Source: Chiloscyllium plagiosum (Eukaryota). From it: 60,277 nucleotides of DNA. Under the pieces are notes generated by a model. It was not told where the DNA came from, searched no databases, and worked only from the letters and a program-made list of their open reading frames with translations. How positions within the stretch are numbered: the first letter of the stretch is position 1; each line of letters starts with the position of its first letter. The stretch spans positions 2,822,068 through 2,882,344 of the forward strand of contig NC_057719.1 of the NCBI RefSeq assembly GCF_004010195.1, written 5' to 3'. This document shows, piece after piece, positions 611 through 57,140 of this stretch. The position numbers and the translations under genes were made by a program.

Positions 611-3600
611 AGACCTGTGGCATGTGCCTTTTTCTTGATGTGGGAGCTCAGGAACATGGCTGATGTCCGAGAAGTGTGTCCAGCTGCAGCTCTTATTTGA
701 TTGCATGACGGCTCTGCAGCTGCAGATGAACTCACTGTGGAGCACTCGCGATGCTGAGGAGGTCGTGGATAGCACACTTACTGAACTGGTCACACTGCAG
801 GTTAGAATTGCTAAGGGAGACAGGGAACGGGTGACCAAAAGGCAGAAAAAGAATAGGAAGGCAGTACAGGTGTCCCTGCAGTCATCTCCCTCCAAAACAG
901 ATATACCATTTTGGATACTGTTGGGGGAAATGGCTCACTAGGGAAAGGTAGCAATTGCCAAGATCATGGCACCATGGCGGGCACTGCTGTTTAGAAGGGC
1001 AGGAAAAAGACTTGTAGGGCCATAATCATAGGGGTTTCTATTGTAAGGGAAGTAGATAGGCGGTTCTGTGGCCGGAAACAGGACTCCCAGATGATAGGTT
1101 GCCTTCCAGGTGCTCAGGTCAGGGATGTCACCGATCGGCTGCACAGCATTCTAAAGGGGAGGGTGATCAGCCAGTTGTCTTGGTGCATACAGGTACCAAC
1201 AATATAAGTAAAAAACGAGTTGAGGTCCTGAAAGCAGAATTCAGGGAGCTAGGAGAGAAGTTAAAAAGGAGGATCTCAAAGGTAGTGATCTCGGGATTAC
1301 TACCAGTGCCAAATGCTAGACAGCGTAGAAATGAAAAAAATAGGCAGGATGAACATGTGGCTTGAGGGATGGTGGAGATTCAGATTTGTTGGACATTGGG
1401 ACCGGTTCTGGGGAATATGGAACTTTACAAGATGGATGGTCTACATCTGAACCAGACTGGAACAAATGTCCTTGGGGGAGTTTTTGCTACTGCTGTCGGG
1501 GAGGTTTCAAACTAATGTGGCAGGGGACTGGGAACAAGTAGGCAGCTAGGTGGAAACTGGAGACTCTAAGAATCATGAAAATAGTATTAATAAGGGGAAG
1601 AGTAGGCAGAGAGCAGATGAATGCAAAAGAACTGGTGGCCTGAAGTGTATCTACTTTAATGCAAGGAGTACAGTGAGTAAGGCAGATGAACTTTGGGCTT
1701 GGATTGGTGCCTGGGAGAATGATGTTATGGCAATCACAGAGACTTGGTTGAAGGAAGGGCATGATTGGTAACTAAATGTCCCAGGATATAGACGCTTCAG
1801 ATAAGACAGGGAGGGAAGTAAAAGAGGGGCTGGAGTTGCATTGCTGGTCAGGGATGATATCACAGCTGCGCTAAAGGAGGACACTATGGAGGGCTTGAGC
1901 AGTAAGGCATTATGGGGAGAGCTGAGAAAAAAGGTTGCAGTTACATTGTTGGGGCTGTATTACAGGCCTCCCAAAAGTGAGCGTGAGGTAGAAGAACACA
2001 TAGGTAAACAGATTATGGAAAGATGTACAGGCAACAGGGTAGTGGTGATGGGAGATTTTAATTTTCCCAACATTGTCTGGGATACACTCAGAGTCAGAGG
2101 TCTAGACAGAATAGAATTTATAAGAAGCATCCAGGAGAGTATTTTAGATCAGTATGTCAATAACCCGACAAGGGAGGGGGCCATATTGGAGTTGGTGTTG
2201 GGGAATAAGCCAGGCCAGGTGGTAGACGTTGCAGTGGGGGATTTCTTTGGGAACAGTGACCACGATTCTGTAGGTTTTAGAATGCTCGTAGACAAAGATG
2301 CGAGTGGTCCTAAGGGAAGAGTACTTGGACCAAGGCCAATTATATCAATATTAGGTAGGAGCTCAGAAATGTGGATTGGACACAGCTATTTGAAGGGAAG
2401 TCCACATTTGAGATGTGGGAGGCTTTCAAAGATAGGTTAAAGACAGTGCAGGATAGGCATGTCCAGTTGAAGGCAAAGGATAGGAAAGGCAAGATTCGTG
2501 AACTGTGGATGACAGGAAAAATTGTACGACTAGCCAAGAGGAAAAGGGAAGCTAAGAACAGAATGGGTCCTGGAGGAATATCGGAAGACTGGGACCAGTC
2601 TTAAACGAGGAATCAAGCGGGCTAAAAGGGGTCATGAAATAGCTTTAGTGAGCAGAATTAAGGAGAATCCCAAAGCCTTTTATTCTTATATAAGAAGCAA
2701 GCGGGTAACTAGAGAAAGGATTGGTCCACTAAAGGATAATGAAGGAAGGCTGTGTGTTGAACCTGAGAGAATAGGTGAGATTTTGAATTATTACTTTGTA
2801 TCAGTTTTCACTGAGGAGAGGGACATGATGAATTTTGAGATTAGAGATAGAAGTTTGATTAATCTGGATCACGTTGGCATAAGTAGGGAAGATGTGTTGG
2901 GTAGGCTACAGGTTATTAAGATGGACGAATCCCCAGGACTGGATGGGATCTAGCCCAGGTTGATCCAGATCTATCCCTATTCCTGATTAAGGGCTTTTGC
3001 CCGAAACGTGATTTTCCTGTTCCTCGGATGCTGCCTGACCTGCTGCGCTTTTCCAGCACCACTCTAATCTAAACTCTATCCCAGATTGGTGAGGGATTCG
3101 AGAGAGGAAATAGCTGTGGCACTGACAGATATCTTTGTGGCATCCTTAAATACAGGCAAGGTGCCGGAGGACTGGAAGGTTGCTCATGTTGTCCCCCTGT
3201 ACAACAAAGATAGTAGGGATATTCTGGGTAACTATAGACCAGTGAGCCTGACGTCAGTGGTGGGAAAGTTGCCGGAGAAGGTACTGAGGGATAGGACCTA
3301 TTTATATTTAGAAAAGAATGGGCTTATCAGTAATAGGCAATATGGTTTTATGCAGGGGAGATCGTGCCTTACCAACTTAATAGTGTTGAGTAAGTGACCA
3401 AGTTGATAGATGCTGGAAGGGCTGTTGATGTCATATACATGAACCTTAGTAAGGCGTTTGATAAGGTTCCCCATGGTAAACTAATAGAGAAAGTGAAGTC
3501 ACATGGTGTGCAGCGTGTTCTACCTAGGTGGATAAAGAACTGGTTGAGCAACAGGAGAGAGAGTGTAGTAGTTGAAGGGAGTTTCTTGAAATGGAGAAAG

Positions 3601-13545: not shown

Positions 13546-13764
13546 GAAAGTGAGGACTGTAGATGCTGGAGATCAGAGTAGAGAGCGTGGTGCTAGAAAA
13601 GCACAGCAGGTCAGGCAGCATCCGAGGAGCAGGAGGATCGACGTTTCGGGCATAAGCCTTTCATCAGGAATTGAATCAGCCCTGTTGAAGGGCTTATGCC
13701 CAAAATGTTGTTTCTCCTATTCCTCAGATGCTGCCTGACCTACTGTTTTTGCAGCACCACACTC
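13546..13764. mobile_element. PLE pseudo-LTR fold-back hairpin (older copy)
   Basis: Inverted arms at about 13583-13668 and 13681-13764, with a 12-nt spacer and several mismatches. Confidence 0.85.
13637..13670 (-). ncRNA. Minimal hammerhead ribozyme motif
   Basis: Reverse complement TTC-CTGATGA-A-AGGC-TTAT-GCCC-GAAA-CGTC-GAT, with one stem II mismatch. Confidence 0.75.
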
Positions 13765-14879: not shown

Positions 14880-17251
14880 GTCATAGAGATGTACAGCATG
14901 GAAACAGACCCTTCGGCCCAACCCGTCCATGCCAACCAGATATCCCAACCCAATCTAGTCGCACCTGACAGCACCTGGCTCATATCCCTCCAAACCCTTC
15001 CTATTCATATATTCATCAAAATGCCTCTTAAATGTTGCAAATGTACCAGTCTCCACCACTTCTTCTGGCAGCTCATTCCATTCACACCACCCTCTGTGAA
15101 ACCTTGCCCCTTGGGTCTCTTTTATATCTTTCCCCTCTCACCCTAAACCTATGCCCTCTAGTTCTGGACTCCCCGACCCCAGGGAAAAGACTTTGCCTAT
15201 TTATCCTATCCATGCACTCATAATTTTGAAAACCCCTATAAGCCTCCGACACTCCAGGGAAAACAGCCCCAGCCTGTTCAGCCTCTCCCTATAGCTCAAA
15301 TCTTCCAACCCTGNNNNNNNNNNNNNNNNNNNNNNNNNNNNNNNNNNNNNNNNNNNNNNNNNNNNNNNNNNNNNNNNNNNNNNNNNNNNNNNNNNNNNNN
15401 NNNNNNNNNNNNNNNNNNNNNNNNNNNNNNNNNNNNNNNNNNNNNNNNNNNNNNNNNNNNNNNNNNNNNNNNNNNNNNNNNNTCGCTGTCCACTACACCT
15501 CCAATTTTGGTGTCATCTGCAAACTTACTAACTGCATCTCTTATGTTCACGTCCAAATCATTTATGTAAATGATGAAAAGTAGAGGACCCAGCACCGATC
15601 CTTGTGGCACTCCACTGGTCACAGGTCTCCAGTCTGAAAAACAACCCTCCAACACCGCCCTCTGCCTTTGAGCCAGTTCTGTATCCAAATGGCTAGTTCT
15701 CCCTGTATTCCATGAGATCTAAACTTGCTAATCAGTCTGCCATGGGGAACCTTGTCGAAAGCCTTACTGATTTCCATATAGATCACATCTACTGCTCTGC
15801 CCTCATCAATCTTCTTTGTTACTTCTTCAAAAAACTCAATCAAGTTTGTGAGATATGACTTCCCGTGCACAAAGCCATGTTGATTATTCCTAATCAATCC
15901 TTGCCTTTCCAAATAAATGTACATCCTGTCCCTCAGGATTCCCTCCAACAACTTGCCCACCACCGACGGCAGGCTCACCGGTATATAATTCCCTGGCTTG
16001 TCCTTATCACCTTTCTTAAACAGTGGCACATTTGCCAAACTCCAGTCTTTCAGCATCTTACCTGTGACTATCGACGATACAAATATCTCAGCAAGAGGCC
16101 CAGCAATCACTTCTCTAGCTTCCCACAGAATTCTCGGGTACACCTGATCAGGTCCTGGGGATTTATCCACCTTTACCCGTTTCAAGACATCCTGCACTTC
16201 CTCCTCTGTAATATGGACATTTTACAAGATGTCACCATCTATTTCCTTACATTCTACATCTTCCATATCCTTTTCCACAGTAATTACTGATGCAAAATAC
16301 TTATTTAGTATCTCCCCCATTTCCTGCAGCTCCACACAAAGGCCACCTAGCTAATCTTTGAGGGGCCCTATTCTCTCCCTAGTTACCCTTTTGTACTTAA
16401 TCTATTTGTAAAAACTCTTTGGATTCTCCTTAACTCTATTTGCCAAAGCTATCTCATGTCCCCCTTTTGCCCTCCTGATTTCCCTCTTAAGTATATTCCT
16501 ACTGCCTTTATACTCTTCTAAGGATTCACTCGATCGATCCTGTCTATACTTTATATATGCTTCCTTCTTTTTCTTAACCAAACCCTCAATTTCTTTCGTC
16601 ATCCAGCATTCCCTATATCTACCAGCCTTTCCTTGCACCCTGACAGGAATATACTTTTTCTGGATTCTCATTAACTCATTTCTGAAGGCTTCCCATTTTC
16701 CAACCGTCCCTTTACCTGCGAACATCTGCCCCCAATCAGCTTTTGAAAGTTCTTGCCTAATACCGTCAAAATTGGCCTTTCTCCAATTTAGAACTTCAAC
16801 TTTTAGATCTGGTCTATCCTTTTCCATCACTATTTTAAATCTAATAGTCCTACCTTGTCCCTGCCTGCCCTGACTGTTTGACTCACTTCTGTTCTCAAAT
16901 GTACTAGTCTCAGACTGATCTCTTTCCTCACTACCTCCCTGGGTCCCCCCCTCTCACCTTACTAGTTTAAATCCTCCCGAGCAGCTCTAGCAAATTTCCT
17001 TGCCAATATATTAGTCCCCATCCAATTTAGGTGCAATCCGTCCATCTTGTACAGGTCATTTCTACCCCAAAATAGATTCCAATAATCCAAAAACGTGAAT
17101 CCTTCTCCCAAACACCAGCTCGTTAGCCATGTATTCATCTGCTCTATCCTCCTATTCCTGCCCTCACTAGCTTGTAGCACTGGGAGTAATCCAGATATTA
17201 CTACTCTCAAGGACCTCCTTTTTAAATTTCTGCCTAACTCTCTGTAATCTT
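14880..17251 (-). mobile_element. CR1 LINE on the minus strand, internally deleted, spanning an assembly gap
   Basis: Minus ORFs: VVISGLLPV (ORF1), [39 protein letters not shown]. 3' tail at 14880. Confidence 0.92.
15314..15482. other. Assembly gap (169 N)
   Basis: Run of N in the sequence. Confidence 1.
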
Positions 17252-21320: not shown

Positions 21321-21690
21321 TGAAGAAGACTTTCAGCATGCTTGCTTTCATTGGTCAGAGCACAGTATAGGAGTTGGGATGTCTTGTTGCTGCTGAACAA
21401 GATGTTGGTCTGGTCACATTTGGAGTACTGCATGCTGTTCTGATTGCTCTAGTATAGACAGGATATTAATAAATTGAAAGAGGGCAGTAAAGATTTACTA
21501 GGATGCTACCTGGACTGAAAGGTTCGAGTTAATAAGGACAGGCTGGGACTTTTCTCTGTGGATTGTAGGAGACTCAGAGGTGACCTAATAGAGGTCTATA
21601 AAATCATGAGAGGCACACGAGGTATGATTTGGAGATGCTGGCGTTGGACTGGGGTGTACAAAATTAAAAATCACACAACACCAGGTTATA

Positions 21691-22650
21691 GTTGTTGTGG
21701 TTCTGTTCGCCGAGCTGGGAATTTGTGTTGCAGACGTTTCGTCCCCTGTCTAGGTGACATCCTCAGTGCTTGGGAGCCTCCTGTGATGTTTCCTCCGACA
21801 TTTATAGTGGTTTGAATCTGTCGCTTCCGGTTGTCAGTTCCAGCTGTCCGTTGTAGTGGTTAGCTGTCTTCCTGTTTGTCCTGTGTAGTGTTTTGTGCAG
21901 TCCTTGCATGGGATTTTGTACACTACATTGGTTTTGCTCATGTTGGGTATGGGGTCCTTAATTCTGGTGAGTTGTCTGAGAGTGGCTGTTGGTTTGTGTG
22001 CTGTTATGAGTCCTATTGGTCGCAGTAGTCTGGTTGTCAGTTCGGAAATGCTCTTGATGTATGGTAGTGTGGCTAGTCCTTTGGGTTGCGGCATGTCCTC
22101 GTTCTGTTGTCTTTCCCTTAGGCATCTGTTGATGAAATTGCGCGGGTATCCGTTTTTGGCGAATACATTGTATAGGTGTTCTTCTTCCTCATTTTGCAGT
22201 TCTGGTGTACTGCAGTGTGTTGTGGCCCTTTTGAACGGCACACCCATGGGGTCACCCATCTCTGGACTCACAGCAGAAGCGGGAATGCAAAGATTAGAAC
22301 AAACAGTCTTACCACAAATTCAACCCAAACTCTGGGTCAGATATGTGGATGACACCTTTGTAATCATTAAAAACACAGAAATAGAGAACACACACCAGAT
22401 CATCAACGCCACACTCACAGGCATCTGATTCACTAGAGAGGAAGAAAATGACAACCAACTCCCATTCCTAGGCGTGATGGTACAGAGAACATCGAATGGA
22501 GAATTTACCACAAAGGTATACAGGAAAGCCCCACACAGACCAAGTCCTAAACTACAAAAGCAACCACCCCAACACACACAAAAGAAGTTGCAGCAAGACA
22601 CTATTCAAAAGGGCCACAACACACTGCAGTACACCAGAACTGCAAAATGA
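21691..22650 (-). mobile_element. Poseidon/Penelope-type PLE with an inverted 5' segment
   Basis: Minus 21691-22235 reads ATLPYIK..VVYKIPCKDC..YTGQTGR (GIY-YIG) plus pLTR. Plus 22234-22650 encodes RT GTPMGSPIS..RYVDDTF. Confidence 0.93.
21730..21769 (-). ncRNA. Minimal type-I hammerhead ribozyme motif
   Basis: Reverse complement GCA-CTGAGGA-T-GTCACC-TAGACA-GGGGAC-GAAA-CGTC-TGC. Confidence 0.85.
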
Positions 22651-22818: not shown

Positions 22819-23480
22819 AGAACATAGAAAAGTATAGCACAGAACAGGTCCTTTGGCCCACGATGTTGTGCCGAGATTTAATCCTAATATAAAATATAGT
22901 AACTTAACTTACGCAACTCTCAACTCACTGCTATCCATGTGCATGTCCTCCGGCAGTCGCTTAAATGTCCCCAATGACTCTGCTTCCACCACAGCTGGCA
23001 ATGCATTCCATGCATTCACTACTCTGTGTAAAGAACCTACCTCTGTCTCCTTTATACCTTTCTCCTAATATCTTCAAACTATGACGACTCATGCCAGTCA
23101 ATCCTGCCCTGGGGAAAAGTCTCTGGCTATTGACTCTACCTATTCCCCTCATTATTTTGTACACCTCTATCAGGTCTCCTCTCTCCCTCCTTCTCTCCAG
23201 AGAGAAGTCCAAACTTATTCAAACTTTCTTCACAAGGCAAGCCCTCCAAGTCCAGGCAGCATCCTGGTAAACTTTCTTTGCACCTTCTCCAAAGCCTCTA
23301 TATCTTTCCTATAGTAGGGCAACCAGAGCTGGACACAATATTCCAAGTGTGGTCTCACCAGGGACTTGTAGAGCTGCAGCAAAACCTCGCGGCTCCTAAA
23401 CGTGATCCCCGTTAATGAAAGCCAAAATACCATATGCTTTCTTAACAACCCTATCCACTTGAGTGGCAACTTTGAGGGAT
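22819..23480 (-). mobile_element. 5'-truncated CR1 in the left PLE arm
   Basis: FRSREVLLQLYKSLVRPHLEYCVQLW; tail TTCTATGTTCT. Confidence 0.92.
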
Positions 23481-23698
23481 GTAATTCTGCAAGTGCAGAT
23501 TCACCCTACAAACCTATATGCATATGTGTGCATGTGGGTGTGTGGGAGGGGGGTGCAGGAGGGAGGATGGCTATGGGTGTCTGAGAGTGTGTGTGTGTGT
23601 GTGAAGGGATGTAAGTCTGTGAAAGGGTGTGTGTGAGTGTTTGCGTGAGTGCATGAGGGTCTGTGTGAGTGTGTATGTGTAGGAGGTTGTGTGCGTAG

Positions 23699-23732
<34 letters not shown>

Positions 23733-24068
23733 TGCAATGGGGTCACCTCTCGTGTGACATGAACCCAAGATCCAGTTGAGGCCATCCTCATGGGAACCGA
23801 ACATTGTTATCAGCCTCTGCTTGGCCACTTTTCTTTGCTGTCTGTCCCAAAGTCCGCCTTCGAGGACGGTCACACGAAGGTCCGAGATCGAATGTCCCAG
23901 ACTGCTGAAGTGTTCTCTGACTGGGAGGGAACATACCTGTCTGTTGTTTGTTGGGTGGTGTCCATCCAGGACAGGCAACAACGAAAAGTGGCTGAGCAGA
24001 GGCTGATAGTCAAGTTCAATACCCATGAGGATAAACGCAACTGGGACCTTGGGTTCACGTCATACAGG

Positions 24069-24284
24069 AGAAAGTGAGGTCTGCAGATGCTGGAGATCAG
24101 AGATGGAAATGTGTTGCTGGAAAAGCGCAGCAGGTCAGGCAGCATCTAGGGAACAGGAGAATCGACGTTTCGGGCATTAGCCCTTCTTCAGGAACCTGAA
24201 GAAGGGCTAATGCCCGAAACGTCGATTCTCCTGTTCCCTAGATGCTGCCTGACCTGCTGCGCTTTTCCAGCAACACATTTCCAT
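24069..24284. mobile_element. 216-bp PLE-derived perfect hairpin mini-element with a 15-bp TSD
   Basis: Arms 24103-24192 and 24195-24284 are exact reverse complements with an AA loop. TSD TTCACGTCATACAGG at 24054-24068 and 24285-24299. Confidence 0.95.
24195..24226 (+). ncRNA. Hammerhead ribozyme core (mirror copy on the minus strand at 24161-24192)
   Basis: C-CTGAAGA-A-GGGC-TAAT-GCCC-GAAA-CGTC-GA. Stem I is short because the fold-back point truncates it. Confidence 0.8.
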
Positions 24285-24831
24285 TTCACGTCATACAGGT
24301 GACCCCATTGCACTATACACACAGAGACACTCCTACAGAAACACACACATACACACTCCCACACAGACTTATACCTTTACACTCACATACACTCTCTCAT
24401 AGACAGCCATAACACCCTTCTCTCATATGCTCACAAATACACACACACACCCTCTCACAGACTTATACCTTTACACTCTCTCACACTGTCTCATAGATAG
24501 CCATAACACCCCCCCACCAACACCCACATGCATGCATACATATAAGTTTGTGGGGTGAATCTGTACTTGCAGAATTACATTTTACTTTGCTCAAAAATTG
24601 CATGAATCCATGCAAGATTCTTTAAATCCGTTTTTTAGATTAGAATCAGTCTGACCACTGTGGCACAGAGGGAAGCTCATACAGGGAAGCTCACACCTTC
24701 AATACATTATCTAGGCCAACATGACACCAATTGTTAAAGTTCACTTAAGAATGTAACTTTTAAAAAGGTTGTGATTTACATATGAAAGAACTGAAACCAA
24801 CATGGTCATTCTAACAGATGAGAGACTTAAC

Positions 24832-25943
24832 TCATGTATAAAGTCAGGGGTATGGGATACAGGGAGATTTGGCTATCTGGATTCAGAAATGGTTGGCTAA
24901 CAGAAGGCAGAGAGTGGTTGTAGATGGAAAGTATCCTGGCTGGAGGTCAGTGTTGAGTGGGGTCCTACAGGGCTCTGGTCTTGGGCTTCTGCTCTTTGTA
25001 GTTTTTATAAATGACTTGGATGAGATTGAGGGGTGGATTAGTAAATTTGCAGATGACACAAGGGTGGGAGGTACCATTGATAGTATCAAGAGCAATTGCA
25101 GGCTGCAGCGCGACATAGATAGGATGCAAAGCTGGGCTGAGAAATGGCAGATAAGAGTTCAACATGGATAAATGCAGTGGAAGGTCAAACTTGAATGCTG
25201 AATATAGGATTAAAGACAGGATTCTTGGCAGTGTGGAGGAACAGAGGGATCTTGGTGTTCAAATACATAGATCCCTCAAAGTTTCCACCCAAGTGGATAG
25301 TGGTGTTAAGAAAGCATATGGTGTTTTGGCTTTCATTAACAGGGGGATCGAGTTTAAGAGCCGTGAGGTTTTGCTACAGCCCCACAAATCCCTGGTGAGA
25401 CCACACTTGGAATATTATGTCCAGTTCTGGTTGCCCTACTATAGGAAAGATACAGAGGCTTTGGAGAGGGTGCAAAAAAGGTTTACCAGGATGCTGCCTG
25501 GACTGGAGAACTTGTCTCATGAAAGAGAATGAATAAGCTCAGACTTTTCTCTCTGGAGAGATGGAGGGAGAGAGGTGACCTTATCGAGGTATACCAGGTA
25601 ATGAGCGGCATGGATGGAGTCAATAGCCAGAGACTTTTCCCCAGGGCAGGACCGACTGGCACGAGGGGTCACAGCTTTAAGATATTAGGAGAAAGGTATA
25701 GAGGGGACGTATAGGAAGGTTCTTTACGCAGAGAGTTGTGAATACATGGAATATGTTGCCAGCCATGGTGGTGGAAGCAGAGTCATTAGGGACATTTAAG
25801 CAATTGCTGGACATGCACATGAATAGCAGTGAATTGAGGGGTGCATAGGTTGTTATTTCATTTTACATTAGGATTAATCCTCGGCACAACATTGTGGGCC
25901 AAAGGGCCTGTTCTGTGCTGTATCTTTCTATTCTATTCTATTC
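24832..25943 (+). mobile_element. 5'-truncated CR1 in the right PLE arm
   Basis: SGVLQGSGLG, KFADDTR, FKSREVLLQPHKSLVRPHLEY; (TTCTA)n tail; possible TAAC duplication at the flanks. Confidence 0.92.
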
Positions 25944-33385: not shown

Positions 33386-34478
33386 ATTAATGGGAAGCCC
33401 TCTATGTTTCTGGTGGACACTAGGGCCACATACTCCGCTTTGAAAATGTCAAATTACCCTACTCTAAAAAGGACTGGTCAGACAGTTAAGTTGTAGGATT
33501 GATGGGACAACACATACCATACCCATGTCGGAGGACATATTGTGTGATATTCAGGGCTGGACTGAACATCAATTCTTGTTTGCAGATGGCATTGCTTGTA
33601 ATCTCCAGTGAAGGAATCTACTCTACAAAACAATGTGCTCCCTCATTTGTACAACTACAGGCTTTGAATTACAGGTCCGAACACAAAAATAGGGCAATGT
33701 CTATGAGCTCCTACAAAGACACATGCCCTGTTGTCTGGTGGTGACACATGATTAACAAGACCAACTCTTAGTTGACGCTCCAGGTACTCCTGCAACTACT
33801 GGAGCTCCCTCAGGTACCATCCCATTTGCAGTCCAACACTCCGGACGTCTCTACATGGCATTGCCAATTACACTGTATTGCGTATGATGATGATGATAAT
33901 GGCAGTGATCAAGAATGAGTCAAAGACTTCTGGCTAGATTGGTCAGTCTTTCTTTATGACTGCTCCATCTTTATATGTCGGAAAGGAGGGTGTTGCCCTA
34001 TCCATCCCTCTACTGCCCAGTGCCCAGGTACTGTAAAGCCAGCCTCCTTCGAGATTTCCCCACTGCTCTCTCAACATAGCATTTGGATTTAAGGCAAAGA
34101 GCCTGGGCTGCATGATTTATAGACTACAGTCACAGCCACCCTCTAGACCAAGGCGATACAGGAGACATCCTCACTAAACATGCTCTACAACTGACAGATA
34201 CATGCTGACCACCAGATTTGAACACATCCTTGCACGCATTCTCCAGCCATCGTCTCTTCTCCCAGCCCAGATCCCAGTACCCTTTGGGTGACCCACCCAA
34301 CAATGTAGGGCGCAACCTATCGGCTGAGTCCTTTAAGGTTAAGATCAACTCTATCAAGCCACATCCTCACAGACCCCTGTATCCACTCAGCCGTGCAGCA
34401 GAGGAAGGGATCGTCCCTGTTATTACTTACCTGCTCCAACAAGGAATCATCATTCTCACTGTCAGCCCGTTCTGCTAG
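33386..34478 (+). pseudogene. pol: ERV pro-pol remnant including a putative 2H-phosphoesterase-like domain
   Basis: LVDT(R)ATYS; LHCI at 33868-33879 and PHCSL at 34058-34072; RT N-terminus in ORF 34218-34478. Stops and frameshifts are present. Confidence 0.75.
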
Positions 34479-34619
34479 TAAGAAAGCCCAGAAGGCCGCC
34501 TTCACATCCTCCCACAGCTGTCCTAAATAGTTCTTATGATAATGAGCTCCTCAGCTCCTGCCTGACCTGCTGTGCTTTTCTAGCACCACACGATTGATTT
34601 GTTTTTCTAGTCCCATTCA

Positions 34620-35170
34620 TGCATCACCTTTATGACCTCTTTGAAATCTAATCTGCAGTACACAAACATGCCATCACAGAAACAGAACAATTCTTTGCTC
34701 TTTTGTTCCCCACCTACAGAACAACCGAGTTGGCCAGTGAATCTATCAATGTGGCATCTATCCGAGAACAGATAGCCAATTACACCTCTCAGGCCCTTGA
34801 TAAGATTACTGCTGAAATGATTGCTCTACGAGCCACCTCGATGCAGAATTGCATAACTCTGAACTGGATCATAGCCAGAAAAGATGATACCTGTGCCCTT
34901 ATAGGTCAGAAATGTTGCACCTACATCCCTAAAAACTCTGAAAATCACCAACCTGGATGACCATATCCATAAGGAAATGAACAAACTTCAGCAAACACCC
35001 TGGCTTCAAAGGCCCAGTAGGCTGGCTTAAAGCCACCCCGGGGTATCGGTGTGGCTCAATTGTGTGGTAGGGTACTGCTCCAGATTGTCAATCTTGGTTC
35101 TGATAGGGTGCAGCAGGACCCTTTGCACTAGTTGTGAAAAACAAACTACAGCCAGTGCCACGGTTTAACA
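34620..35170 (+). pseudogene. env: ERV envelope transmembrane subunit remnant
   Basis: Heptad region, ISD-like MQNCITLNWIIA, and CX6CC motif CALIGQKCCTYIP. Confidence 0.9.
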
Positions 35171-35257
35171 GCTGATAGTATCCAAAGATAAGGATGAAGA
35201 TAGAATTCCAGAGGCTGGGCCAGATTGAGCCCTAAGGTTTTGTCCTGAATGAGGGGG

Positions 35258-47544: not shown

Positions 47545-48417
47545 TTTAATTTTAATAACTCAATAGTTACTCATAGAAATCTAATGTTATATCACTGGGA
47601 TGCTTTTTTGCCATTATTATGGCAATAATGTTTTTTTCAAATTTAAAAAAAAGTTATGATATTTCAGCTACTTTAATCCCATGTGTATCACTGATGATTT
47701 GTATTTACTCTGTGGAAATTTTAATTGAGTAGAAGATTTTACTGCATTTTACTTTCTGATTTGCTGTTTGAGAATACTTCAGTGTAATTGGCTGCCAACT
47801 CCCTGCGGTGATATCACTGTTACTGTATGCCTAGTGTTTGTCTTGATCTTGCACATATCAAGAAAGGGAAACTTCATGCCTCAGAGATCACTAGATAGCA
47901 GAAAATCCCTTTAATACTTCAAAGTACTCTTTTGGTATGATCCTAGATATTGAATATTGTTAGATATTATTACTGGAGCGAATCATAGATTTACATTTAA
48001 ATAGTTCCCATTTCTGTCTTTGTTCACTCCTTTCCTCAGCAATATTTTGTGTTTGATTTTGTCTACTTTCTGTGGTTTTATTTACCCTAATGAAGAAGAG
48101 CATATCTTCTCAACATCACAACTATTGATCTCACCCTGCTTGGCTGTTGTATGGAACCCCCTACGTGTTAACCCCTTAAAGCCAAATACATAACAATATT
48201 GTCAAATTTGATGGAATTTTAATGCATTTACTTTAGGGGAAATTTGGCATGTTAATATGCTGCAGTTTTTCTTATCTGCGATGTTTTGTGTTATGTTGCT
48301 GAAAATATTACTGATGAAATACTTAGCAGTTGTAGTAAAATCATGCGTATACTTAGGATGAAGAAGATTATGAGTACCACATATGCTTGGTCCAGTTCTT
48401 GTTGGATTCATTTGGAT

Positions 48418-48832
48418 ATCAAAGTTGAAACTTTATTGCTGGAACAGCACAGCAGGTCAGGCAGCATCCAGGGAACAGGAGATTCGACGTTTCGGGCACA
48501 GGCCCTTCTTCAGGAATGAGCAGAGAGTGTTCAGCAGGAGAAGATAAAAGGTAGGGAGGAGGGACTTGGAGGAGGGGCGTTGGAAATGTGATAGGTGGAA
48601 AGAGGTCAAGGTGAGGGTGATAGGTCGGAGTAGGGTGGAGGCGGAGAGGTCAAGAAGAAGACATTTCCAACTCCCCTCCTCCAAGTCCCTCCTCCCTACC
48701 TTTTATCTTCTCCTGCTGAACACTCTCTGCTCATTCCTGAAGAAGGGCCTGTGCCCGAAACGTCGAATCTCCTGTTCCCTGGATGCTGCCTGACCTGCTG
48801 TGCTGTTCCAGCAATAAAGTTTCAACTTTGAT
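48418..48832. repeat. Near-perfect inverted repeat of PLE pLTR (172-bp arms, 71-bp spacer)
   Basis: 48418-48589 versus 48661-48832, with one mismatch seen. Confidence 0.95.
48733..48768 (+). ncRNA. Intact minimal type-I hammerhead ribozyme (mirror copy on the minus strand at 48482-48517)
   Basis: ATTC-CTGAAGA-A-GGGC-CTGT-GCCC-GAAA-CGTC-GAAT: stem I ATTC/GAAT, stem II GGGC/GCCC, GUC cleavage triplet. Confidence 0.9.
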
Positions 48833-50767
48833 CTCCAGCATCTGCAGACCTCACTTTCTCCTCCATATCCCTCTAAACCTTTCTTATTCATGTACCTATT
48901 AAAATTTCTTTTAAACATTGTAATTGTACCCACATCCACCACTTCCTCTGTAAGTTCATTCCACACGCAAACCAACCTCTGTGTAAAATATCTGCCCTCA
49001 TGCCTCATTTTAAATCTTTCTCCACTCACCTTAAAAACTGCCCCCTAGTCTTGAAATCCCCCATTCGGGGGAAAAGACAACTATCATTAACTCTAACTAT
49101 ACCCCTCTTATTTTAAACTTCTGTAAGGTCACCCCTCAATTTTCTATGCTCCAGTGAAAAACATCCTGGCCTACCCAACCTTTATTTATAACACAGAACT
49201 TCCATACCTGGCAACATCCTGGTAAATCTCTTCTGAAACCTGTCCAACTTAATACTATCCTTCCTATAACTGGGCGACCAGAACTAGACACAGTATTCTA
49301 GAGGAGGCTTCACCAATGTCTTGTACAGCCTCAACATGACTTCCCAACTTATATACTCAGACGTCTGAGCAATGAAGGCAAGCATGCCAAACGCCTTTAT
49401 AACCAGCCTGTCTATATGTGATGCAACCTCAAAGAATTATGTACCTGCACCCCTAGGACCCTCTGTTCTACAATACTACTCAAGGATCTACCATTAATTG
49501 TGTAAGCCCTGCCTTTGTTTGCTCTACCAAAATGTAATACCTCGCATTTATCCAGATTGAACTCCATCTGTCATTTTTTAGCCCACTGACCCATTTGATC
49601 AAGATCCTTTTGTAATATTAGAAAACCTTCACTGACCATTACGCCACCAATTTTGCTGTTGTCCATAAACTTACTAACCATGCCTCCTATATTCTCATCC
49701 AAATCATTTATATAAACAACAAACAAAAGAGAATCCAGACTGATCCCTGTGGAACACCACTGGTCACAAGTCTCCAGCCTGAAAAGCAACTCTCCGTTAC
49801 CACTCTTTGCCTCCTGCCATTAAGCCAATTGGCAAGCTCACCCTGAATCCCATGTAACCTAACTTTACTAATTAGTCTACCATACAAAACCTTATCAAAG
49901 GCTTTAGTAAAGTCCAAGTAAACAATATCTACTGCTCTGCCCTCAACCTTTTTGTTAACTCCCTCACAAAAACTCAATCAAGTTTTTGAAACACGATTTT
50001 CCTTGCACAAAACTATGCTGACTACCCGGTCACATTTTGCCTCTCTAAATGTCCATGAATCCTATCTTTTATAAAAACCTCCAACAATTTACCCACAACC
50101 GATGCCAGACTTACAGGTCTACAGTTCCCCAGTTTCTCCTTACACTCTTTCTTAAACAAATGTTTCTTAATAATCCTCCAGTCATCAGGCACCTCACCCG
50201 TAGTTATGGATGATGCAAATATTTCTGCAAGGGGTTCCGCAATTTCCTCCCTTACTTCCCACACGTTTTAGGATATATTGGATCAAATCCTGGAAATTTA
50301 TCCACATTTATATTCTCTAAGACAGTCCCCGAATTTCCTCTTCTGTAATATTAATTGTTTCTAAAACATCAAAATTTATTTTTGCGCATTCTCTAGACTC
50401 CACTTCTCTCTCCACAGTAAATCTAATGTGAAATATTCATTTTGTATCGTTCCCATCTCGCTATTAGGTACAGGATCCTGAGTGAAGCAGCATGGATGTT
50501 GCAGCTGTTTCTGAGATTTATTATAGTTTTATTACAGCCATTAAGTTAATACATTAATAGAAGATTTGTATTCTTTTTGTTTCATTAACATTAAAACAAA
50601 ACAAAAAAAAGTCATGATTTGTTTTCAAATGGACTTTTTTTTAAAAATAAGACCTTTTAAGAAACTATAGTGCATGGCAAATTTTTTTAAATTCTAAATT
50701 TAGAAACTTGAAAAAACTATATGCATAAAACAGATTTCCACCCAACATTGCTGGAGTTGATAGTCAT

Positions 50768-51502: not shown

Positions 51503-53457
51503 GTTTGGGGACTTTCATCTGAGATTTAACAGGTTTAGACAGATTTGAATAGATTTGGGGTACAAAATAGCCCAACAGATTTAAACACTTGCAGGTAGGT
51601 GTCCTAGATATTTAAATAAAAGGTAGGTGAGACAAATTGTTTAATTTCAGTGATTTGTGGTTGATTAAATTACAAGTGAAAGAAATGGTTCTTAAAATTG
51701 CTAGAGGTTCAGGGATTTGAAGATGATACTCAAATTTGCTAAGAAAGTTTAGAAGGAAGGTAAAATGACATACTTTTAGAATTAGCAAAAAAGTTGGATT
51801 TGGGTTTAACCAAGGACAAAAGTAAAGCTGAATTGTAAGGGAGTTACTCAAACACTTGGGTGGGTTAGAGAAACAGACAAGTGCAGTGAACATAGAAAAA
51901 CTTAAATTACAATTGAGTAAGATCGAGTTAGAAGTTAAACAAAGAGAGAGAGCGAGAGAAAGTAGAGAGAGAGCGAGAGAGAGCGGCACACACACAGTCT
52001 CTGCTGAGCAAAGAAAGAGGAAGGGGGGGGGAAGAGAGAGAGAGACAATTTGAACTTGAGAAGATGCGACTTAGTCAGAAAAGTCAAGTTAACAGGATGG
52101 AGATTCAAAGAGAATGTAGTGATATATACAAATATGTCAAAACTCTGCTACATTTTGATGAGAAAGATGTTGAAGCCTTTATTTCATTTGAAAAATTGGC
52201 TAGGCAGATGGAGTGGTCCGAGAATTTATGGGTAATGCTAGTTTAGACTAAACTGGTAGGCAGACCTAGAGAGGTATTTGCCATGCTGTCTGATGAGGGG
52301 TCAAGAGATTATGAAGAGGTTAAACAATCTATTTTAAGTGCTTATGAATTGGTGCCAGAAGCATATAGAAAGCAGTTCAGAAACAAAGAAGGAACCAGGT
52401 CAGAATTAAGTATAATTCAAAAGAATTCAACAGAGTCACGTTGATAGACGGATGTGTGCTTTAAAAATAGATAGGACCTTTGAGGCTCTAACAGAGATTA
52501 TGCTGCTGGAGGAGTTTAAAACCTGACCTCCAGAGATGCTAAGAATTCACATGGAAGAATAAAAAAGTTCAGGAAGTGAGAAGGGCAGTAGAACTAGCAG
52601 ATGAATAAATGTTGGTGCATAACACAAGCTTCTGGCCAGAATTTCGTCCTGTGAGGGATAGAAGTTTGTCGAAGGGGAGATCCTACACTACAAAAGAAAG
52701 AACACTGGTTAAAATTTACCACAGGTTAAAAAAGCCCAAGAGTGTGGAAAGGAGGTGAAAGGCCTCGGATATTTCCACTGTGATAAAGTTGGACATGTAT
52801 AGTCAGTGCTGGTTGTAAAGAAAGGCACTGTGGGAAAAGATATGGTATAAGAAGCTAAGCCAATGGCATTAGTGAAGGTAGTAAAGGAAACCCCTAGAAG
52901 AGCTAAGGAGCTGTAGGACAATGTACAGCCTAGCAGGAGCTGGGTATGGAGTTAGTACCTAATCTTTACAAAGAATTTGACTCTGGGTAAAGCTTACTCA
53001 GAAAGAACAGGGGGAGAAGGACGTAAGTTATCATTTTGAGAGACACAGGATCTAACCAGTCACTGTGAGAGAGGAGTGAAAATGCACTCCTTTTGATCTG
53101 TTACCTGAGAATGTGTAATTTATGGGATATAGGACAGAAATTTCATGTTCCCCAATGTAAGATCAGGTTGGAGTGCCAATTCAACACTAGGAAAGTTACA
53201 GTGGGAATGATTGACAGAATGTCAGTCCTAGGAATTCAGTTTGTTCTTTGGAATGATTTGGCAGAATCCAAGGTAGGAGTGACACCCCTTGTTGTGGAGA
53301 AGCCCAAGAAACTGAGGACTTAAAACAGAAATATCCTGGTATTTTCACAGACTGTGGAGTAATCAGATCTCACTATCGTAAGTGACAACACAACGCAAAA
53401 ACTGAAGAGAAAGATGAAGGAGTTGAGGTTCAATTAGCAGACATTCTGTTTCACATT

Positions 53458-54873
53458 ATGGTGCAGGAAAAACCTGAACGGGCAGAGGGTCAGACCAAAC
53501 TCTCAGACGGAAAGGACTTGCAACAGCAAGACAAAATGATAAAAGATATACATGTGGATGCGTACTCTGAAAAGGAGGCAGGGAATATTCCAGGAGGTTA
53601 TTATCTGAAAGATAGGATCCTAAGACAGAGGTACAGACCACAGCAGGTTAGTGCAGAGAAGAAATGGGCCGAAATTCACCAGATTGTGTTGCTGGTAGCA
53701 TACAGACAGGATGTGTTGCAGGCAGCACATGAACTACCTGTAGGAGGTCACCTCGGGGTACGAAAGGCTCAGGCTAAGGTACAAAAACATTTTTATTGGC
53801 CTGGAATGCAGAAGGATTTGGTTAACTTTTGCCGTGCGTGTCATACATGTCAAATGGTAGGTAAGCCACAGGCGGTAATAAGACCAGCCCCTTTGTTGCC
53901 AATTCCTCCATCTGAAGAACCTTTCACGCGGGTTATAATTGATTGTGTAGGTCTCCTCCCGAGAACTAAAAGTGGGAACCTGTACTTGTTAACCATAATG
54001 GAAGCATCCTCCAAATGACCATAACGGAGTATCAGGTCAAAAAGGGTGGTAAAAGACTTAGTAGCTTTCTTCACACAGTCTGGGCTACCCAGAGAGATTC
54101 AGTCCTACCGAGGGTCAAATTTTACTGCCACGCTATTTGAGGTGGTTTTGGATAGCTTAGATATACAGCACTTTAAATCCAGAGCATACCATCTTGAACC
54201 CCAGGGAGCTTAAGAAAGGTGGCATCAAACCTTGAAGACCATATTGAGAGCATACTATCAGGATTACCCGAATGATTGGGATAAAGGTATCCTATTCGTA
54301 TGGTTTGCCATTAGAGATGCCCCAAATGAATCTACTCAGTTCACTACCTTTGAGTTAATATTCGGGCACGAAGTGAGAGGCCCTTTGAAATTAATTAAAG
54401 AAAAATTATCAGGACCAAAATCAGAGATCTCACATTTAGATTATGGATCCAAGATGAGGGAGACATTAAATAGAGTAGGTGAGTTAGCTAAACAGCACCT
54501 AAAGGGGGAACAGTGTAGAATGAAGAATGTGGCAGATAAGCGCTCTGAGACTCGAACGTTTTCCCAAGGGGGTGACGTGTTAGACGTGTTAGTACTGTTA
54601 TCAGTGATAGGAGATCCCTTCAAAGCCAGGTTTAGAGGTCCCAATCAAATTGAGAAAAACTTCAGTCAGATGAATGATCTAGTAAAGATGCCAGATAGAA
54701 AAAAGTATCGGGCATGTCATGTAAAGATGTTGAATCTGTATTATACTACAGAGAAAGAACTGGAGAAACAGGTGTTAGTTACTGCCTGGCAGAGTGAGGA
54801 ATCAAATCCAGATGATGTAGATTTTGATGTGCCTCAAAATAGACTAAAAAATGATGAAGTCCTTGAGGAGTAG
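53458..54873 (+). pseudogene. Gypsy integrase (H2C2 zinc finger plus DDE core)
   Basis: AHELPVGGHLG..FYWPGM..CRACHTCQ; PFTRVIIDCVG; FELIFGHEVRGPL. Confidence 0.93.
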
Positions 54874-55213
54874 GAAAGGTTAGTAAACTATCTGTCTCAA
54901 GTGCACAGAACGCAGTTTAAAGGTTTGCAACTGCAATATAAGGACATATATAAGAATCAGATAAGGAGGACTAACGCTATTGTACACAAAGCAGACATTG
55001 TGAATACTGCTCTAATAAAACTACACCCCTTATTGGCTTAGTCCTTTCAAAGCCAGACAGGTCCAGATGGAGGTAGAGGCAATGCTCAACGAAGACATCA
55101 TCTAACCAAGGCAGAGTGGAGTTTGCCGATCATCTTTCTTCCCAAACCAGATGGGTCTCAATGATTTTGCGTGGACTACTGGAAGGTCAATGCCATTACA
55201 AAATCGGACTCAT

Positions 55214-55968
55214 TGTAAATATATGGTTTAGTTCGAGGCATTCAGAAGCCTTTAATGATATATTTGTTTCAGTTACTTATAATACAATGCTATACTTAAC
55301 CATTAACTAGCCCAGTGTGTAGTGTAACCCTTGTATGTACGAACAAACAGTGGAAAAGTACTGAGTACATCTGACTTGTAAAGATGTGCTGATGTGACCA
55401 CACGATAGAAAAAAAACGTTAACATAGATCAGAATGTGCGAGACTGATTCCCATATCTGGTAAAAGAACCTCATATACTAACGGCTTAATAAGAGCGGCC
55501 ACAGTTGCGGTCAGGGGAACGAGATAAACAGCAAGGATGTTACCGCCCTGTGCGTATAGATACGGGATGTGTGATGCTCTGTGGTTGCAAGAGGAGATCA
55601 CGTGGAGACTGTTTCGCGGGCAGGTCACATGGGGTCAGACATCAGAGAACGTGAGAAGGCGGAGAATGGAGTCAGATCAACAGCCAATCAGAAGACAATC
55701 CCACCTCAGTGATTACATGACGTTCTATACTATATAAAAGACTGGGTCAGGGACAGGAATAGGTCTGACTTCATGAACTGACACACTGCTGTTTGTCAGG
55801 GACGGGAATACCTAGACCCAGAGCTCTGTATACTTTATCCACTCACTGCTAAAATAAAGAAAGAATTTGAGACCGAATATCTTCTCCTATTGCTTCATTA
55901 AAAGAACACACAGGACTCGGCTCACACATAAGGGAAAGTAAGCTGGTAGATTGAGCTAGAGTCCAACA
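55214..55968 (+). mobile_element. Unrelated solo LTR inserted in the Gypsy RT
   Basis: TGT...AACA termini, TATATAAAA (55731), AATAAA (~55853). Splits the RT motif NAITKSDS/YPI. Confidence 0.85.
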
Positions 55969-57140
55969 ATATCCAATTCTGAGGACTTGGAGGACTGTAT
56001 CGAGGAAGTCGGACAAGTCAGTTATATCACCAAGTTGGACTTACCGCTTGGTTACTGGCAGGTACCTTTATCAGAGACGGCGAAAGAAATTTCTGTTTGT
56101 AACCCCAAATGGGCTATATCAATTTAAAGTGATGCCATTTGGAATGAAGAACACACCTGCCACATTCCAAAGACTCATGAACAGAGTTGTGGCTGGGTTA
56201 AGAAACTGTGCGGTGTATTTGGACAATGTCGTGATCTTTACTAAGTCCTGGAGAGATTAAATGGTACAGTTGGCAGAGCGCTTTGAATGACAACGAGAAG
56301 CAAAACTATAATAAACTTAAATAAAACTGATTTCTTGAAAGCAGATGTTCTTGGGACATAACATAGGTCATGGAAGGTTGACCCCACGGAACGCAAAGAT
56401 GAAGGCAATCGAGGAATTTCCATGACCAACCTCAAAGTAAGATGTGCTTCGATCCTTTGGACTCAGCAGATTTTATTGCAACCTTGTTCCAAACTTCAGC
56501 AGTGTAGTGGCACTGATAACTGATTTGCTGAAGAACATAAAGTCTCAGTGGCCAGAACAATGCCATTCGACGATTTTAAAGCAATATTAACTAACAAACC
56601 AGTTTTACTTACACCAAACTTTTCAAAACCTTTTAAAGTTGCTATCGATGATAGTGACATACGAGTTGGAGTTGTATTGCTTCAGGAAGATGAGAACAAG
56701 ATTGAACTGCCACTTGGATACTTTTTGAAGCAACTCAACATTCACCAGAGGGAATACTCCACGATCAAAAAAGAACTATTGAGGTTGGTACCGGCCATAC
56801 AACATTTTAACATATATGTCACGAACAATGTGTTGGAGACGATTATGTACACAGATCACAATCCTCTTACATTTTTAGAACACTTTAAAGACAAGAACTA
56901 GACTATTTCATTGGGAGTCTCACGTTATAAACTTTTAATTTAAATATCGTACATGTTGCGGGTTTTAAGAATGTAATTGCAGATGTATTATCGCGGATTT
57001 AACTGACAAAGTTTAGATGAGATTTGTATTTATCCAAAAGGTGAACTTATATAAAAGTTATCTGTATATTATGGTAATGTGCTTAAAGAATAGAAAAAAA
57101 TGAAGTCATTATGATGGTTCATTTTTTCTTAAGGGACAGG

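Follow-up and report, generated by a model that had tools for sequence, protein, structure and literature searches.

A 216-bp head-to-head hammerhead insert in Chiloscyllium plagiosum, probably a one-off product of Penelope-like element insertion

The closest described counterparts of the locus treated here are the insertion units of EN+ Penelope-like elements (PLEs). In the examples given in PMC3846280, an inverted pseudo-LTR (pLTR) lies within a target site duplication (TSD) and has a one-sided tail of 31 bp, the head-to-head arrangement being the commonest, and PMC8557442 presents an inverted 5'-truncated copy with a tail of 30-40 bp as the standard unit. For PAc, the Poseidon element of Anolis carolinensis, the parts of PMC11167929 that deal with insertion describe a protein, predicted to be a dimer, that cuts and extends both strands, and a reverse transcriptase (RT) that starts at two sites which define the tail and takes uncleaved RNA as its template; the anole hammerhead ribozyme, according to the same parts, requires its protein. 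Minimal hammerheads of metazoans, according to PMC4209133, have no activity as monomers and little as dimers, and pairs of them are found on opposite strands, 100-700 bp apart. Non-autonomous derivatives of PLEs have also been published (excerpts of PMC8557442 and of bioRxiv 10.64898/2026.07.22.740005).

In the window, the whole 60,277-nt stretch of Chiloscyllium plagiosum DNA that was analysed, the insert comprises the 216 bp at 24069-24284, between two direct copies of the 15-bp sequence TTCACGTCATACAGG. The left copy (24054-24068, plus strand) also meets the 3' end of the repeat family, and the right copy (24285-24299, plus strand) is followed by the TGA stop codon of the host ORF. The insert itself opens with an unpaired tail of 34 bp (24069-24102, minus strand), which belongs to the long arm only. 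The long arm (24103-24194) is a copy of the repeat with its sense on the minus strand, pairs exactly over 90 bp (24103-24192), and begins 3 nt ahead of its hammerhead core, at the equivalent of native position 48734. The short arm (24195-24284) has its sense on the plus strand, begins 1 nt ahead of its core, and stops 34 nt before the point where the long arm ends. Both arms, identical over these 90 bp, end no more than 3 nt from the hammerhead core, and the head-to-head junction between them is the dinucleotide AA (24193-24194), two extra bases at the 5' end of the long arm, with no palindrome besides the arms themselves. One strand of the insert is predicted to fold with -206.1 kcal/mol (z = -27.6), and none of 200 shuffled sequences was equally stable. 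The preliminary description, which reported exact inverted arms of 90 bp around a 2-nt loop, here AA, is confirmed on this point; its perfect hairpin of 216 bp has the right length, but the hairpin takes up only 182 of the 216 bp, since 24069-24102 is unpaired.

Each strand of the insert carries, according to a motif scan, the minimal hammerhead core CUGAAGA-A-GGGC(UAAU)GCCC-GAAA-CG-UC. Motif scan and folding together assign the cores to the minimal type I, at 24196-24223 on the plus strand, with a predicted cut between 24223 and 24224, and at 24191-24164 on the minus strand, with a predicted cut after 24164. Scanned on both strands, the whole window yielded four minimal cores, two in the insert and two in a related pair of repeats at 48413-48862. 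An Rfam search with 23400-24900 (E<=10) gave ten matches, all of them under the gathering score, and the hammerhead family was absent from them. Like the metazoan PLE hammerheads of minimal type I shown in PMC4209133, the focal motif has the core boxes, an extra nucleotide 5' of helix II, the pair G10.1-C11.1, and a palindromic ACGU replacing helix III, and in both cases solo copies and opposite-strand pairs occur. It departs from the examples in that source in that its helix II has 4 bp, the 5' strand of the native helix I is cut by the junction, and the motif lies within a 90-bp duplex. The cores reported earlier in both polarities are indeed present as one sense core per strand, but not as two in a single transcript. 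An intramolecular dimer ribozyme made from both focal cores was considered and dropped, because the two cores lie on opposite strands.

Compared with the PLE insertion units illustrated in PMC3846280 and PMC8557442, the locus has the same head-to-head terminal copies and TSD, and it has likewise landed in another retroelement. Its tail of 34 bp agrees with the 30-40 bp of the published cases (31 bp in Pen2a_Av and 34 bp in D. virilis), whereas its TSD of 12-15 bp stands against 8-10 bp in the rotifer PLE examples. Contrary to such units, the focus is without any coding sequence, and its arms stop at most 3 nt from the hammerhead core, which distinguishes it from the units illustrated. With PAc, in the parts of PMC11167929 cited above, the focus shares two end points that lie downstream of the hammerhead with a spacing of about 35 nt; PAc primes both strands and its copies retain the uncleaved ribozyme, both counted as common to the focus, and the RNA run used here (X21, see below) shows no accumulation of RNA ends at the site of the cut. 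Unlike PAc as described there, the focus does not sit at an ATT motif of AT-rich DNA, and the ATG in stem II, as read from the sequence, opens only a short frame.

Another comparison is offered by the animal non-LTR retrozymes, which, in bioRxiv 10.64898/2026.07.22.740005, are non-coding, PLE-related, 100-400 bp long, and equipped with a type I hammerhead, as is the focus. However, they are tandem, with at least two hammerheads on the same strand, whereas the focus is inverted. A tandem arrangement is not found at the focus, although other copies of the family do form tandem units. The suggestion that the insert is a self-propagating element of the retrozyme kind is not upheld by its inverted, non-tandem cores, one sense core per strand. 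The other origin proposed earlier, a minimal product of PLE integration, gains support from the one-sided tail, the head-to-head arms, the TSD, and the three differing junctions described below.

What is found at the locus is a head-to-head inverted, 5'-truncated copy with a one-sided tail of 34 bp (37 bp with microhomology), a minimal hammerhead in the terminal repeat, and a TSD of 12-15 bp with an empty site in the partner arm of the host, all of them features of a PLE unit. The repeat is likely to be the ribozyme-bearing end of a PLE. None of the 54 ORFs of at least 110 aa in the window joins an RT or GIY-YIG domain to the family repeat, so that membership in the PLEs rests on motif and architecture; another family of the window has the order ORF, hammerhead, tail, with the same GAAACGUC box as the focal family. 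The insert is read as two head-to-head ends of an abundant hammerhead repeat, with tail and TSD, left behind as a dead, one-off product of PLE insertion, and this reading is given a probability of about 85%. Since the layout has already been described for the PLE class, the insert is most likely an ordinary landing product and not a new self-copying hairpin. A search of titles and openings of abstracts, with subscription papers and repeat databases outside it, returned no description of the mini fold-backs of this family.

That a 15-mer direct repeat should fall by chance within +-8 nt of the two insert ends has a computed probability of about 4e-7. The perfect 15-bp TSD of the preliminary description holds as a repeat, and its extent is readable as 12-15 bp with 3 nt of microhomology, because the long arm aligns to the untruncated family copy through 24066; loose ends of the family at native 48860-48862 mark its natural 3' end. 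The inner AGG of the left repeat (24066-24068) may be read as element or as target, possibly a microhomology used in priming.

The host of the insert is an older repeat of another family. Its right arm (23969-24600, plus strand) has a GIY-YIG-like C-terminal frame at its end, and its inverted partner arm (23478-23968, minus strand) is 70-79% like the right arm. At 23747-23773 of the partner arm the duplicated word occurs only once, in diverged form, as expected of an empty site. The insertion point lies directly before the stop codon of the short host-repeat frame (24299-24302). A Pfam search with this frame gave no match, and the protein atlas placed it with unnamed eukaryotic clusters at 0.94 and with a cluster containing 15% GIY-YIG members at 0.90. 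We take the frame to be the endonuclease end of a PLE, and the atlas lead agrees. The in vitro target of the anole PLE is likewise an ORF-pLTR junction; the stop-codon landing at the focus is one case, possibly chance. The insert is apparently young, barring homogenisation by gene conversion, because its identical arms lie within a host whose arms differ by 20-30%.

Perfect palindromes can arise as fold-back chimeras, and the locus is known here from the assembly alone. An assembly or library artefact of this sort is nevertheless hardly credible, as it would not be expected to produce a TSD matching a paralogous empty site, a one-sided tail that ends at the natural end of the family, or older, diverged pairs of like design.

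Such pairs are indeed part of the family within the window. The untruncated arm gives nine alignments here, corresponding to six family loci. Three of these loci consist of two inverted arms, namely the focus, 13546-13761, and 48413-48862. Each of the three has a tail on a single arm, and in each of them the short arm ends 30-40 nt before the end of the long arm. Their junctions, on the other hand, all differ, with AA at the focus, a spacer of about 10 nt (13670-13680) in the second pair, and position 48665 in the third, where the ribozyme lies 70 and 150 nt downstream. The pair at 48413-48862 is young (99% over 177 nt), with a 2-nt overlap at its junction and only a 5-bp candidate TSD; on both of its arms the 4-bp helix I is intact and the sequence upstream is rich in pyrimidines. 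A comparison over 78 nt gave no difference within the focal pair, none within the 48413 pair, and seven between the two, so each young pair came from its own template. The hairpin at 13546-13761 has the same total length as the insert, 216 bp, and nearly the same turning point; it is the oldest pair, with more differences between its arms (15) than between its long arm and some other loci (9-11), and no TSD was found at its ends. These features, like the short candidate TSD of the 48413 pair, speak against the reading as PLE insertion products. Among the seven arms that keep the hammerhead region, five begin just upstream of the core, with alignment starts at 48724-48736, and two extend further upstream. 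The native TCATTCC upstream of the core presumably fits the initiator consensus. The lowest of the five starts belongs to a solo, tail-less copy at 2980-3075, which begins at the 5' edge of the hammerhead, inside a LINE-like RT frame, and has an 8-bp TSD into which its family alignment runs.

The three pairs bear on how the second arm is made. It might arise, from the same PLE origin, by self-priming, the cDNA making a U-turn and folding back at the 5' end of the RNA. This route is favoured in the passages of PMC3846280 that cite junction palindromes, and the identical focal arms with a loop of only 2 nt speak for it; a junction palindrome beyond the arms is, however, absent at the focus. Self-priming also leaves the shortfall of the short arm in all three pairs unexplained, whereas two RT start sites, as in the cited parts of PMC11167929, account for it. 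Moreover, the short arm of the 48413 pair cannot be a copy of the long arm, because it reaches about 80 nt further upstream and holds sequence that the long arm is missing. Self-priming is thus an improbable source of the second arm.

In the preferred reading, a PLE protein would nick the two strands of the target with a stagger of 12-15 nt that leaves 3' overhangs, and each nick would prime reverse transcription on PLE RNA. The top nick would use the distal start site, the target AGG-3' pairing with CCU of the RNA, and give the long arm with its tail, while the bottom nick would use a start site about 35 nt upstream and give the short arm. Both cDNAs would pass through the hammerhead, still uncleaved, and terminate at its 5' edge, where the RNA itself probably begins; head-to-head joining of the two cDNA ends, with fill-in, would complete the process. 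These steps are modelled on the anole PLE results given above, and every insertion would create its hairpin afresh. In L1 twin priming, two target nicks prime two cDNAs, which leads to an inversion inside a TSD. The L1 cDNAs copy different parts of the RNA, whereas both focal cDNAs would copy the same 90 nt. A search of the literature by title found nothing specific on twin priming in PLEs.

The fate of the ribozyme after insertion depends on this geometry, in which the antisense arm comes first in either transcript. A fold constrained to the hammerhead is penalised by +56.6 (plus strand) and +55.5 kcal/mol (minus strand), compared with +0.5 kcal/mol for a native single arm, and the pair probabilities of helix II in the focal transcripts round to 0. 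Besides, the plus arm is without the native 5' strand of helix I; the helix I made by the junction has a mismatch on both strands, with five of its first six pairs forming, and single focal arms, in which helix I is weakened by the junction, give 5.9 and 2.4 kcal/mol. Given this order of the arms, and a hammerhead fold predicted to lie about 56 kcal/mol above the hairpin, the motif in the insert is probably inert, a passenger. The earlier proposal that a 90-bp duplex in read-through RNA would sequester the ribozyme is borne out by the predicted folding; with the ribozyme buried, no cleavage would be expected.

The window holds five inverted PLE-like structures of three families in 60 kb (13546-13761, 21640-22650, 23478-24600, 24069-24284, and 48413-48862), one of them nested. 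The third family, at 21640-22650, has on the minus strand a linker/GIY-YIG-like frame (21834-22319), then a hammerhead (about 21766-21733), then the terminal sequence, and a joined RT piece on the plus strand (Pfam RVT_1, E 7e-6). Its minus-strand frame is without a Pfam match, and the atlas clusters for this family are GIY-YIG and HTH_animal, at 0.94-0.95. The two halves of the structure overlap by just 71 bp, like an L1 twin-priming inversion. Most of the remaining window we take, from its translations, to be LINE-like and LTR-type fragments, with LTR-type integrase and RNase H-like frames presumably at 53386-56901 and what appears to us a decayed envelope-like stretch at about 34700-35000 (within about 34000-35200). 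An assembly gap of 169 N (15314-15482) separates LINE-like fragments of opposite orientation, and no host exon was recognised among the window translations.

The family was also followed in four public sequencing runs (X1, X11, X15, and the RNA run X21), with the single native arm 48666-48900 as query at 80% likeness, so that the results describe the family and not the focal locus. For the locus itself the run search listed no RNA run, which counts neither for nor against anything. Contigs matching the native arm numbered 52,189 in X1 (DNA, the best-matching organism) and 59,337 in X11 (another organism); X15 gave 5,496 matches, and X21 gave 3,387 of 12,955,460 reads. The repeat has a sharp 3' end that is fixed across many sites: in the DNA runs, loose ends are most frequent at 48862, beyond which the flanks are unlike, with 992 contigs of X1 (agreement 0.34) and 893 of X11 (0.33). 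At the other side, depth climbs steeply across 48730-48745, the 5' edge of the hammerhead, in all four runs (in X21 from 93/136 at 48722-29 to 420/577 at 48738-45). This step could be due in part to subfamilies with other upstream sequence; 207 reads of X21 depart from the reference before 48733, with an agreement of 0.4. No copies starting at the cleavage site, 48765, were seen among the 24 of 857 loose ends listed, nor is there a sharp step in depth at this place. A pattern scan of metagenome contigs with a 22-nt family motif gave no match, and the matches of a 19-nt motif (48 metagenome, 38 prokaryote-genome, 0 viral) were discarded as chance, because none of the 86 loci aligned to the family over more than 44 bp.

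Joints within the family are relevant to whether the hairpin could move as such, that is, as a non-autonomous, MITE-like or retrozyme-like element copied in trans by PLE proteins. Eight of the 15 joints listed, of 42 in total, use the tail boundary at 48822-48834, and three are strand switches (48732/48832, 48738/48832, and 48753/48829). The joint 48732/48832 was found in two organisms, with a single contig in X11 and another in X15; it may go back to an old insertion common to both or may have formed repeatedly, and its presence in two runs slightly favours recurrence. This opposite-strand joint speaks for an intact hairpin that moves, as do the equal length and nearly identical turning point of 13546-13761, the published non-autonomous PLE derivatives (in the excerpts of PMC8557442 and bioRxiv 10.64898/2026.07.22.740005 cited above), and the tandem units of the family that restart at 48732-48733. 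On the other side, 13546-13761 is another sequence variant with another junction, and retrozymes are tandem same-strand arrays, unlike the focus. Recurrence of the focal loop junction, which the preliminary description had proposed as a sign of self-propagation, was not observed: the junctions of the three window pairs all differ, and the focal one (48734/48736) is absent among the 15 of 42 joints listed, none of which has X21 reads. The latter is a weak test, and perfect fold-backs are likely to be under-recovered in contigs and short reads. A hairpin RNA copied again would also carry its tail at one fixed end and place a 90-bp duplex in the path of the RT. Taken together, movement as an intact hairpin is very improbable.

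Two arrangements of repeated units were seen in contigs of both X1 and X11. In one, the tail end at 48861-48863 runs back to 48732-48733, giving tandem, retrozyme-like units of about 130 bp; in the other, it runs back to 48829, giving tandem copies of the tail only.

In the RNA run X21, family reads occur in both directions, with peak depths of about 870 and 1,240, and 94% of them continue into unlike sequence. Molecule ends are not piled at any place in this polyA single-cell library, which is ill suited for circles or cleavage. Reads in both directions, the high share running into unlike sequence, and the lack of piled ends make the family RNA look like passive read-through of many copies. 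At the loose end 48860, 174 reads of X21 enter one flank (agreement 0.87) containing AATAAA, and this shared flank suggests that a well-expressed 3' UTR elsewhere contains a copy of the family.

A-to-I editing was sought in the same family RNA and rejected as evidence. In RNA (X21), 21 of 120 variant places showed A>G, compared with 3 of 61 and 6 of 92 in the DNA contigs of X1 and X11 (Fisher p ~0.02 each, at the level of the family with paralogs pooled). The sum of A>G and T>C (43 of 120 in RNA against 15 of 61 and 24 of 92 in DNA; p ~0.13-0.14) is not significant, and reads and pooled-paralog contigs differ in sensitivity. In addition, the strand asymmetry of the RNA variants is not confined to A>G, being also seen for C>T. 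For use of the fold-back as an siRNA source or ADAR substrate, the family-level RNA data thus give a confounded hint. Among the titles listed in a search on editing in sharks (12 of 14), nothing specific was found.

Taken by itself, the focal locus carries little weight; it is a clean, young example consistent with a PLE insertion model of two start sites and two strands. A wider scenario, which must be called doubtful, is that PLE transcripts start at an initiator immediately 5' of the hammerhead and that double priming close to this 5' end mass-produces tiny, perfect fold-backs, whose edited or diced double-stranded RNA would form a reservoir silencing the parent element, while a subset might remobilise as intact hairpins. 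If so, thousands of fold-backs would lie in host transcripts, and the transposon would be suppressed by its own landing products. Should the fold-backs amount to a large pool of edited or diced double-stranded RNA, the geometry of PLE insertion would be linked to silencing by the host.
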